64,000 bases of DNA, from the NCBI RefSeq assembly GCF_006345805.1, contig NC_042997.1:1674001-1738000 (forward strand), in the 5' to 3' direction. This stretch comes from Octopus sinensis (taxonomy: Eukaryota). Shown here piece after piece: positions 1-47,926 of this stretch; position 1 is the first letter of the stretch, and each line of letters begins with the position of its first letter. Both the position numbers and the translations under genes were made by a program. The notes below the pieces were generated by a model, which had not been told where the DNA came from, ran no database searches, and saw only the letters and a program-made list of their open reading frames with translations.

Positions 1-313
1 TATATTTATGTTTATATCTTAAGGTATTTGATTGTTAACATGTCTCATGATGTTATGTCCTGATCTAGAGTAAAATATAGAAATATAAAGAACCGTTGTT
101 AACACGCATACACCAGTAATTTAATCTCTCTCTTTCTCTTATTCTCCATTTCTCTCTGTTTCTGCGCTCTTTCCCTTTCATATAAACCGCTTTACATAGT
201 ATATATTTAAGCAATGTGTTTGTGGATAGTTGAAGGGATAGTTGTGGAACTGAAGAAAGAATAATGACTCTTGAAATATGAATATACACACATTACATAC
301 ATTTTTCTTTATA

Positions 314-5891: not shown

Positions 5892-6147
5892 TGTCTGTGT
5901 CTGTCTCCACCACCATCGCTTGACGGCGAGCTGGCAGAAACGTTAGCACGCCGGGCGAGATGCTTAGTGGTATTTCATCTGCCGCTACGCTCTGAGTTCA
6001 AATTCCGCCGAGGTCGACTTTGCCTTTCATCCTTTCGGGGTCGATAAATTAAGTACCAGTTACGCAGTGGGGTCGATATAATCGACTTAATCCATTTGTC
6101 TGTCCTTGTTTGTACCCTCTGTGTTTAGCCCCTTGTGTGTAGTAAAG

Positions 6148-6204
<57 letters not shown>

Positions 6205-18098: not shown

Positions 18099-18101
<3 letters not shown>

Positions 18102-18240
18102 CATGGCTGCGTGGTAAGAAGCATCCCTCCCGACCACATGGTTTCCGGTTCCGAGAGTAAGTCCTGGGGTCGAATTGTTCGACAGAAACACTGCAAGGCT
18201 GCGCTCCAACATGGTCGCAGTGAAGGGACTGAAACAAATA
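18099..18240 (+). mobile_element. Internally deleted family A SINE
   Basis: Head GGCATGGCTGCGTGGTAAG joined to the tail AAGTCCTGGGGTCGA...CATGGTCGCAGT...GACTGAAACAA. Confidence 0.7.
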
Positions 18241-18243
18241 CAG

Positions 18244-18352
<109 letters not shown>

Positions 18353-18396
18353 TATATATATAAATGAAAGAATGGAGTTGAACAACGAATTAACTA

Positions 18397-18504
18397 AATT
18401 CCTTTATTTTATTTTCGACATATGTTTCGAAGGCTGCATATTCCTAATTTCGAAGGAATAAGGGGTGCATTATGCCGCCTTCTCATCAGGAAAAGTAAGG
18501 AACT
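18397..18504 (-). ncRNA. Type I hammerhead ribozyme (mirror copy in the left arm); predicted cleavage after C at 18417 on the minus strand
   Basis: Exact reverse complement of the plus-strand ribozyme across all core and stem positions. Confidence 0.88.
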
Positions 18505-18620
18505 TATGTCAGCATCAAGGTGCACAAAAACGTTTAGATGACTGCCCGCACGGAGCCCATATCTATGGGCTCCGTGCGGGCAGTCATCTAAAAGTTTTTG
18601 TGCACCTTGATGCTGACATA

Positions 18621-18728
18621 AGTTCCTTACTTTTCCTGATGAGAAGGCGGCATAATGCACCCCTTATTCCTTCGAAATTAGGAATATGCAGCCTTCGAAA
18701 CATATGTCGAAAATAAAATAAAGGAATT
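18621..18728 (+). ncRNA. Type I hammerhead ribozyme, complete core; predicted cleavage after GUC at 18708
   Basis: Stem I TTTTC (18631-35)/GAAAA (18709-13), extended by TTCCTT/AAGGAA beyond an internal loop; CTGATGA 18636-42; stem II GAAGGC (18643-48)/GCCTTC (18691-96) extended by GCATA/TATGC; GAAA 18697-700; palindromic stem III ACATATGT; GTC 18706-08. Confidence 0.88.
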
Positions 18729-18926
18729 TTGTTAATTCGTCGTTCAACTCCATTCTTTCATTTATTTGTATTTAAAAAAAACACACAAATTTCCACACGA
18801 TAGCACGTGATCTCTGCCCTAGGCATGTAGCTTCAACCGTGTTTTTCTGACATGAATTTGCTACCCAGGTATCGGTTAACCGAATTATCCATAATAAGAT
18901 AATTCATTCAACTACTCAATTATATA

Positions 18927-18976
<50 letters not shown>

Positions 18977-19859
18977 ATATAATTATATATGTAATTACAA
19001 GGCCGACTGAATCATAAACACTAATAATATTTCTTTATCATACACAAATGGCCTCATCATAATTTTTAATAAGCCCACATCTTATAAGCACATACTTACA
19101 TTCTATTTCCTTCTATACCCCTTCATACACAACTTTGAAATCTTCTTTTTACAAGTAACGATATTGATATATATACCAAACGTCAAGTGATCATGTTTAT
19201 GTTCAATCCCAATTATAACTTGACATAATAACAAACATCAATATATGTATCTTCTTACATACTTACATATATTATATGCATATATCTATTAAAGTGAGGC
19301 ACAAATATGATGCATTATCCATTCCATGCCAAATTCAGGAATATGCTGATTTAGAGCCAGATGTAAGACGAAAATCATTTCTGTTGTATGTGAATGTGAA
19401 TGTGATGCTGTTGAAATATATCATGTAACATTCTAATGCATTTTGTTCGCGCAATTGTGTAGTTTATTTTAGTATAACTGAAGGCTATTGTTTTATTACC
19501 AACTGCGTATTAAAAACAATTTGGAAAATACTCCATACATTGGGATTTTTGATTATACATCCATCATCTGATAACGTTTTTAACTTGTTCGTTAAAATAT
19601 TTTAATGATATCCATACAGTTCTACCATACTTTTTTCTCCAAAATGTACATATGTAGCATTTGAGTAACTAGAAAGAAAGAAAAGTATGTGTTTAGAAGT
19701 AAATAATCTGCCCCCAAAATGAAGTACTAATAACCCTGTGCAACAAATTTCAGGTTAAATAAAGGATAAGTTACGTAAGACTTGTTTCTGGGTCAAATAA
19801 GTGTTATGATTCTGATTCTGATTCTGATCTTTATTTCTGCAGATTAGCCACCATTTTTC

Positions 19860-21200: not shown

Positions 21201-21618
21201 TATTTCTTTACTGCCCACAAGTGGCTACACACAATGGGGGCAAACAAGGTCAGACAAACGGATTAAGTCGATTATATCGACCCCAGTGCGCAACTGGTAC
21301 TTATTTAATCGACCCTGAATGTATGAAATGCAATGTCGCCCTCGGCTGAATTTGAACTCAGAACGTAGCGGCAGGCGAAATACCTATTTATTTACTACCC
21401 ACAAGGGGCTAAACACAGAGATTACAAACAAGGAAGGACAACCGAATTAAGTCGATTATATCGACTCCTGTGCGTAACTAGTACTTATTTAATCGACCTC
21501 GAAAGGATGAAAGGCAAAGTCGAACTCGGTGGAATTTGAACTCAGAACGTAGCGGCAGACGAAATAACGCTAAGCATTTCGCCCGGCGTACTAAAGTTTC
21601 TACCAGGACGCCACCTTA
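21201..21618 (-). mobile_element. Tandem (~1.8-mer) family B SINE inside one 16-bp TSD
   Basis: A full copy (~21385-21616) plus a 5'-truncated copy (21201-21384), flanked by AGGGAATGATTTTCCT (21185-21200) and AGGAAATGATTTTCCT (21619-21634). Confidence 0.88.
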
Positions 21619-39600: not shown

Positions 39601-40005
39601 CTCTTACACTTTTAACTGATTCAGTCATTTGGATGTGGCCATGCTGGAGCACCGCCTATAGTCGAGCAAATCGACCTCAGGACTTATTCTTTGTAGGCCT
39701 AGTACTAATTCTATCGATCCCTTTTTCGAAACTGCTAAGTTACGGGGACGTAAAAGCACCAGCATCGGTTGTCAAGCGATGTTGGAGGGGACAAGCACAG
39801 AAACACAAACACACACACACACACACATATACACATATATATGGCGGGCTTCTTTCAGTTTCCGTCTACCAAATCCACTCACAAGACTTTGGTCGGCCCA
39901 AGTCTATATTAGAAGTGACTTGCCCAAGGTGCCACGCATTGGGACTGAACCCGGAACTATGCGGTTCGTTAACAAGCTACTTACCACACAGCCACTCCTA
40001 TGCCT
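39601..40005 (-). mobile_element. Family A SINE, full length
   Basis: Reverse complement of 41376-41775. Confidence 0.9.
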
Positions 40006-40393
40006 GTATATATGTATGTATGTATAGATATATATATGTATGTATGGATGAATATATGTATATAGTGCTATTAATCTACGTGGTCAAACAGGCCTATAAT
40101 ATGGCTTAGGTTTCCAAGCAGTCTCTCAGACTTTGACGGTTTGGTTTGTTCTATTTGAAAGTCAAAACGTGTTCAAATAGAACAAGCAATGTGCTTAGAA
40201 CCTGCTTTTGTTTGGATACACAGGAAACGTTTTTAAGTCTACCTAATCTCATGTTTTAATAGTATGCATCTGTTAGCAGTGTACGTTAGTTGATATTTAT
40301 CTTTTTCTGGATGGAATAAATTCTTGTTGATCTTACCTTAACGGAATATTAAAATATATAAGTATATATTCGTTTGTATGTACATGTATATAT

Positions 40394-40717: not shown

Positions 40718-41375
40718 GTGTGTGTGTGTGCTCCTGTCCGTATGTGCATATGTGTGCATTTCTGTTTGTGCGGGGAGAAAAGCGGTAAATTCGAATGAAA
40801 ATGATACTTCTACTGTGTCCGGTAGAATTATCACCAATTATTAATCTCACGGCTACTTCCCATTGCTATCTTACAGGATGCCTGTAATAAGCAGTAAAGT
40901 ATTTGTTTCCGTATACATATCTATAATGTTTGAAAGTTGAACCCAGATGATATTTCATAAATGAAACCAGAAAATTGTAAGCAGTGACTAGGTATTACAG
41001 AGCAAGAAAGTGAGTAAATGTTACAATTTAAAATATTTTAAGCAGATGAAATATACTAGAAATGCAGTTCTACTATATTCCATTTAATTGTTTGGTGGTG
41101 TTGCCTTCGAAGGTAAACCTTTGGATATGAAGACAATAGTATTAATTACGCTTTCTTGGATACAGAAGATACGTCAAAAACAGATCTCTGAGAAAGGATA
41201 ATGACCTATCAGCAGCAGTCAGAGGTAACTCTGCGTGATATTTGAATCATTAGATGTCAGATATATTGATTTCCAAAATTTCTAACTCTCTACTAATCTC
41301 AAGCAGTCTCTCAGCGTGAAACAATATGGGAATATCCAATAATTCATGAAGGCTGACTATTAGGATATACATATA

Positions 41376-41546
41376 GGCGCAGGAGTGGCTGTGTAGTAAG
41401 TAGCTTGTTTACCAAGCACATGGTTCCGGGTTCAGTCCTACTGCGTGGCACCTTCGGCAAGTGTCTTCTACTATAGCCTCGGGCCGACCAAAGCCTTGTG
41501 AGTGGATTTGGTAGACGGAAACTGAAAGGAGCCCGTCGTATATATG

Positions 41547-41577
<31 letters not shown>

Positions 41578-41775
41578 TTGTGTGTCTGTGTTTGTCCCCC
41601 TAGCATTGCTTGACAACCGATGCTGGTGTGTTTATGTCCCCGTTAATTAGCGGTTCGGCAAAAGAGACCGATAGAATAAGTACTGGACTTACAAAAGAAT
41701 AAGTCTCGGGGTCGAGTTGCTCGATTAAAGGCGGTGCTCCAGCATGGCCGCAGTCAAATGACTGAAACAAGTAAA
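41376..41775 (+). mobile_element. Family A SINE, full length (tRNA-like head, CORE-like ACCTT(G/C)GGCAAGT, internal TA/TG microsatellite)
   Basis: GGCGCAGGAGTGGCTGTGTAGTAAG A-box region, GGTTCAGTCC B-box-like; many copies in the window. Confidence 0.9.

Positions 41776-45701: not shown

Positions 45702-47926
<2,225 letters not shown>

Follow-up and report, generated by a model that had tools for sequence, protein, structure and literature searches.

The palindrome lies at 18360-18765 of a 64-kb stretch of Octopus sinensis DNA (hereafter the window, to which all positions refer unless a locus is named). Its two arms (18360-18561 and 18564-18765) are complementary along 202 bp apart from three mismatches (18532/18593, 18395/18730, and 18384/18741) and enclose a 2-nt loop, TC, at 18562-18563; among the long inverted repeats listed for the window it is the most tightly spaced and the most nearly perfect. 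The original prediction had described these arms, mismatches, and loop, a hammerhead ribozyme on each strand, and (TA)n on both sides. All of this was reproduced, with the tracts located at 18246-18362, up to the short arm at 18360, and at 18921-18990. Both tracts are read as the insertion target, as arm ends of the family adjoin TA-rich sequence.

Positions along the element are given as q coordinates, with q1 set to window position 18564 and the numbering running along the right arm. On the minus strand, the short arm (18360..18561) is a pLTR copy of q1-q202 that stops at the short 3' end of the family, and on the plus strand the long arm (18563..18920) is a pLTR copy of q0-q357 that stops at the long 3' end. 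The arms meet head-to-head at 18562..18563, where one extra T is followed by the C that forms q0 of the long arm. The last part of the long arm (18766..18920, +; ~150 bp, here 155 bp) probably spans the distance between two RT start sites. It had been taken for an unpaired right flank of ~155 bp, and although this length was correct, the segment is the 'tail' of a Penelope-like element (PLE), a leader into the ORF. Neither window arm contains any part of the ORF, and the whole unit is predicted to form a hairpin whose arm helix contains 198 pairs.

Further repeats were found in the window. A SINE-like fragment (18100-18245) lies between two TA tracts adjoining the element, and SINE-like repeats also form a 184-bp tandem pair (21201-21566) with an inverted copy 15 kb off (5925-6157). 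The two halves of a 223-bp inverted pair (39791-40013 / 41367-41589), 85% complementary, are 1.35 kb apart. At 45851-47756 (+), two open stretches of 345 and 190 aa, which show YMDD and, C-terminally, a cysteine and endonuclease-like region, represent what we take to be a non-LTR retrotransposon.

A hammerhead descriptor scan of both strands of the window returned three sites, namely 18636-18708 (+), 18489-18417 (−), and one weak 4/4/2-bp match at 250-303. The type I hammerhead of the long arm (18620..18729, +) consists of CUGAUGA at 18636-42, stem II at 18643-96 (6 bp plus an insert), GAAA at 18697-700, and ACAUAUGU at 18700-07, with a predicted cut after C18708 and a stem I of 5 bp plus a distal helix; the type I features (core CUGANGA, GAAA, NUH, and three stems) were all present in the scan. 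Its counterpart in the short arm (18396..18505, −; core 18489-18483, predicted cut 18417) mirrors this fold, and the three arm mismatches all fall outside the hammerheads, which bears out the claim of a complete ribozyme in each arm with mismatches outside the core. Of the two scans proposed with that claim, the descriptor scan recovered both arms, whereas the Rfam scan yielded no hammerhead model match at E ≤ 1; its matches were to miRNA models only, below gathering scores and caused by hairpins and TA repeats. The 42-nt insert in stem II is a likely candidate reason for the missing hammerhead match.

Across the family, the hammerhead core was intact in 121 of the 144 arms spanning it and was the least variable region, with a small difference of 1.5% against 1.8-3.9% elsewhere. 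In 14 copies from several subfamilies, 90% of cells were paired, compared to 37-49% in slid controls. Two-sided changes, taken as covariation in the stems, occurred among these copies at three of the 26 pairs (one in stem I, two in stem II), a number no better than in shuffles (353/500) and limited in weight by the kinship of the 14 rows. An older subfamily (L189, L202, L210, and L217) carries a GUA cleavage triplet and a CUGAAGA core (CUCAAGA in L202), together with a two-sided change in the stem II extension. The catalytic fold was calculated at −22.5 kcal/mol, 5.3 kcal/mol above the minimum-energy fold (−27.8 kcal/mol). In the monomer, stem III has 2 bp only, with a palindromic AUAU loop, from which poor monomer cleavage is predicted. 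According to PMC4209133, hammerheads with such short stems III fail as monomers and act weakly as dimers, and PMC11167929 describes a protein-assisted hammerhead that is dispensable for insertion in vitro. As hammerheads of this kind reportedly depend on dimers or protein, a single-arm cleavage test may fail for a true ribozyme. In the parent element the hammerhead is probably active, either as a dimer or assisted by protein; in the palindrome, it would be a passenger. No pile-up of 5' ends was seen at the predicted cut (5 vs 4.0 expected, p 0.37), and this lack of excess fits an uncleaved RNA as template. The prediction of dsRNA in a read-through transcript agrees with the full pairing predicted here, but the auto-inhibitory switch built on it, as well as the viroid-like occurrence in both polarities, look like by-products.

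The origin of the arms became apparent from sister copies. Searching the 2.72-Gb genome with the arm gave 2360 first-look candidates, of which 40 were scored, resulting in 49 matches; the 42 full-length best arm matches among these 40 scored candidates showed 97-100% identity. The sister copies belong to an element with RT and, at the C-terminal end, GIY-YIG in a single ORF, whose longest open stretch is 645 aa and whose GIY-YIG Pfam score of 20.2 falls just under the cut-off of 22.6. No intact full-length ORF was found among the 20 RT-bearing loci read, and a PDB search gave no match (best E 0.91). In L042 and L055, which show a repeat unit of 3.5-3.6 kb, and also in L182, L193, and others, pLTR sequence is found both 3' of the ORF and ahead of its start. 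In L042, L055, and further loci the supposed unpaired flank runs on for 50 nt to the ORF ATG, which identifies the arms as pLTR and the flank as the tail. Both arms are thus almost certainly 5'-truncated pLTR pieces of a high-copy, autonomous-type PLE. As a separate observation, 18738-18755 (q175-192) is complementary to the AUG region of the L042 ORF (14-15 bp, −22 kcal/mol); the putative helix would bracket the two RT start sites and mask the start codon, and across copies it shows one-sided G-U changes only. In another locus (L041 1431-2435, +), an intronless open stretch of 335 aa resembling a biogenic-amine GPCR lies ~1.1 kb from a copy of the element.

We file the family as an EN+ PLE, Hydra-like; its palindrome architecture is already known, and the family member is new. 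The octopus family shares with EN+ PLEs (PMC3846280 and PMC8557442) the head-to-head inverted 5'-truncated copy with a one-sided tail, TATA- and initiator-like motifs and a hammerhead in the pLTR, an Asn-rich insert between RT and endonuclease, and microhomology junctions. It differs in its tail of ~150 bp, compared to the 30-40 bp reported there, and in that the window arms hold no ORF. With the Hydra clade (PMC8557442), e.g., Hydra-1_Obim, it has in common DKT, RWL at the RWK position, CxxC and CxH, the absence of CCHH, the (TA)n target, a canonical hammerhead, and RT motifs that match by eye. In L042 and L055, these appear as SDKTRN (DKT replacing DKG) and IRWLAFF (with L for the K of RWK), and the endonuclease, likewise read by eye, contains CGVC..E..N..CMH, i.e., CxxC and CxH flanking the conserved E and N, and no CCHH. 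However, the CxCX5C linker of that clade is missing in all five copies inspected, the repeat unit exceeds the general size of <3 kb, and Hydra-1_Obim itself differs in sequence and hammerhead. The RT-endonuclease linker comprises ~146 aa with 27-30% Asn and 0-1 Cys (P0001 of L042 being an Asn-rich linker without the cysteine motif), and Asn-rich inserts are described for rotifer Penelope elements in PMC3846280. Lacking the CxCX5C linker, the family is placed as Hydra-like and not as a Hydra member, and it targets (TA)n without the cysteine linker credited with that targeting. Two other assignments were rejected: Naiad (N-terminal GIY-YIG, no canonical hammerhead), as the endonuclease is C-terminal and a hammerhead is present, and a non-LTR retrozyme, as no tandem direct repeats with at least two hammerheads on one strand were found. 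Non-LTR retrozymes (bioRxiv 10.64898/2026.07.22.740005) are similarly short, non-coding, PLE-derived, and equipped with type I hammerheads, but are built from tandem direct repeats with hammerheads on one strand instead of an inverted pair.

For the comparison of arm ends, 180 loci were fetched, many of them overlapping, which yielded 128 long, 117 short, and 35 other arms, 280 distinct ones in all; part of this sample stems from queries favouring certain arm lengths, which leaves two pattern-picked sets of 30 unaffected. Short 3' ends cluster at q202 and q208 and long ends at q357, each with slight TA homology in the element, and TA-rich sequence follows 237 of 245 arm ends. Exact patterns detected at least 105 short and at least 73 long ends, and in independent contigs loose ends running into (TA)n were seen at 18771 and 18916. 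A total of 82 head-to-head junctions were collected, 71 of which join a long to a short arm (one being a local tandem duplicate) and none a long to a long arm; the remaining 11 comprise one doubtful short+short case (L055) and ten with one broken arm. In the pattern-picked sets, 15 short-end and 20 long-end anchors had a partner, four insertions occurring in both sets, and this partner was long in 14/15 and short in 20/20 cases, respectively. No partner was found within ~1.5 kb for 15/30 short-end and 10/30 long-end anchors. In one tail-to-tail case (L001 2846-3423), the (TA)n tract behind an older copy is occupied by a young copy with a short end.

Both the Penelope link and the (TA)n target of the original prediction proved right in these sister copies, and among the loci fetched, other copies were palindromic and (TA)n-flanked as well. 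The proposal of an element type stands in part: the structure recurs, with a full hammerhead in both arms in 23 of the 71 long+short pairs, but its arms are the ends of a PLE, and the palindrome probably does not represent a separate element type. Across copies, arm lengths vary continuously, and no junction recurred at an unlinked locus, the sole repeat being the local tandem copy, so that each palindrome appears to have been built at insertion.

The 5' ends of the arms are not evenly distributed. Among 136 arms, from loci picked by tail or end sequence, 30 end within q-13..5, compared to 7.6 expected per equal window, and 14 reach beyond this site; 15 of the 23 anchors that reach the q-7 site stop there. 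The commonest end position is the A of TCATT (q-7); TATAA lies ~28 nt and TGACGTCA ~40 nt upstream of it. We take these to be initiator-like, TATA-like, and CRE-like motifs, respectively. A perfect TGACGTCA occurs at L022 3238-3245 (q-51..-44) and is present in several older subfamilies, and in the L071/L098 insertion a loop-free axis falls exactly on TGACGTCA. As partnerless copies stop at q-7 too, junction homology alone does not explain the pile-up. Six of the 71 long+short pairs, the window included, have their axis near the same place, both arms ending near q-7 and each pair having its own junction or polarity; in the window, the junction sits 7-8 nt inside the pile-up. These motifs and end positions suggest that the palindrome axis probably coincides with the transcript start. 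In ORF-start copies at 37 loci, which are older (70-90% alike) and rough at their ends, the upstream pLTR begins at scattered positions, with one at q-6 and one at q-15, and gives no support for q-7. One public run, presumed to be RNA, has family coverage in 25 of 30 bins; A>G differences are found in DNA runs as well.

Further information on the template came from variants within pairs. In the 44 of 71 long+short pairs with an overlap of at least 40 nt, the two arms had 54 non-majority bases in common, compared to 12.2 ± 3.2 for random partners, and 130 differences compared to 243 ± 20, and none of 1000 draws reached either figure. At each of the subfamily columns q66 and q67, the two arms match in 22 of 23 pairs, and the window arms share q14, q66, and a rare T>C change at q42 that occurs in 2% of arms. 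Two RNAs from the same source locus, or gene conversion, would produce such shared variants as well. In 34/71 pairs the 5' reach of the short arm exceeds that of the long arm by more than 10 nt, and in 13/71 the arms do not overlap, indicating that neither arm is a simple copy of the other. At the 71 junctions, 35 overlaps of 1-8 nt, six blunt joints, and 30 fillers were counted; 12 junctions come within 10 nt of symmetry, and 8-bp palindromes lie at the centre of two of these. Long arms stopped just past the short start site in eight cases (3.5 expected, p 0.03), a weak signal from one set of 33. The junctions of L148 and L141 hold extra short pieces that restart at q-7 (q-7..33 and q-7..29), suggesting template jumps at the RNA 5' end.

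Taken as a whole, we consider it likely that the palindrome consists of two pLTR pieces joined head-to-head in (TA)n, presumably by one twin-priming event on one RNA; for twin priming on a single RNA as such, we would speak of a fair probability. In LINE-1 twin priming, two primings on one RNA, from both target strands, lead to an inverted 5' part joined by microhomology, with a variable second site and arms that do not overlap. In the octopus family, by contrast, two fixed sites are used, and overlapping arms are frequent. Here, an RT-endonuclease, probably as a dimer, would nick both (TA)n strands, after which one 3'-OH would prime at the short and the other at the long start site, a step favoured by TA homology of 2-3 nt. 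Both cDNAs would stop at variable points and then be joined by microhomology or filler. In the window, synthesis of both likely continued to the 5' end of an mRNA starting at the pLTR initiator, and two cDNAs ending there would give equal arms, a near-perfect palindrome, and an axis at the transcript start.

Twin priming accounts for the end rule, the shared template, and the 5' pile-up, and it fits in vitro findings of two sites and two strands. In the accessible part of PMC11167929, a PLE protein cuts and extends both strands in vitro and starts at two internal sites bounding the tail; start-site use did not differ visibly between the target strands, which by itself does not show a one-of-each rule, the two sites are not tied there to the two arms of inverted insertions, and the steps after initiation were left unvalidated. 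This element, Poseidon PAc of Anolis, resembles the octopus family in its two RT start sites around the tail, its AT-rich target, and the use of uncleaved RNA as template, with which the missing cut-site pile-up (5 vs 4.0) agrees. However, it belongs to another clade, and its tail lies inside the ORF, whereas that of the octopus family lies in the 5' leader. The formation of inverted PLE structures is called open in PMC8557442. In the titles and abstracts surveyed, neither a one-of-each rule nor twin priming was found for PLEs, and older Penelope papers may hold one.

The shared variants could also be explained if two RNA molecules from the same source locus, one per dimer subunit, had supplied one arm each. 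Fully overlapping arms, as in the window, would then arise without strand displacement, but there would be no reason for a short arm on one RNA and a long arm on the other (71 vs 0 and 1), nor for long arms halting near the short start site, which makes this origin unlikely. Clearly less probable is self-priming, a hypothesis put forward in PMC3846280 for Penelope structures in head-to-head orientation, by which cDNA or antisense RNA would fold back and serve as its own template. Shared variants would again follow, and the 12/71 junctions symmetric within 10 nt, including the two on 8-bp palindromes, agree with folding; yet this fit is confined to symmetric cases. Folding of DNA requires the short arm to lie within the long one, contrary to the 34/71 pairs in which it reaches further and the 13 pairs without overlap, while folding of antisense RNA would need extra trimming at both fixed ends, and for loop-free 8-bp centres, annealing between the ends of two cDNAs would be a better match than a hairpin.

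A palindromic ribozyme element that is non-autonomous, propagates itself, and carries an auto-inhibitory switch appears very improbable. Near-identical architecture at six loci, two full hammerheads in 23/71 pairs, and the hairpin fold of the whole unit with its 198 arm-helix pairs speak for it, but no junction is found again at unlinked loci, arm lengths grade into one another, and the arms are plain pieces of an ORF-bearing family. The chance of an assembly artefact from a fold-back chimeric read is close to nil: no contig piece across the window axis was among those listed, but the mirror ends at the family short end and the other arm at the long end, three mismatches separate the arms, other head-to-head joints occur in contigs from three studies (one public run each), and one joint (18531 to 18634) was found in two of the runs.

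The palindrome of the window is ordinary for a PLE, and its value lies in the sister copies, which likely show how inverted insertions form. From about 70 independent young insertions, a sharp rule emerges: one short and one long end, the same template, and a stop at the initiator. This end rule predicts the outcome of a simple in vitro reaction, in which the 150-nt gap between the start sites separates the two products. With many such hairpins in the genome, dsRNA would be expected to arise wherever they are transcribed. For PLEs in general, we lean towards integration by programmed twin priming on one RNA with two fixed RT start sites, each serving one of the nicked target strands, in which case an inverted pLTR with a one-sided tail would be the normal product and near-perfect palindromes would mark the promoter start.
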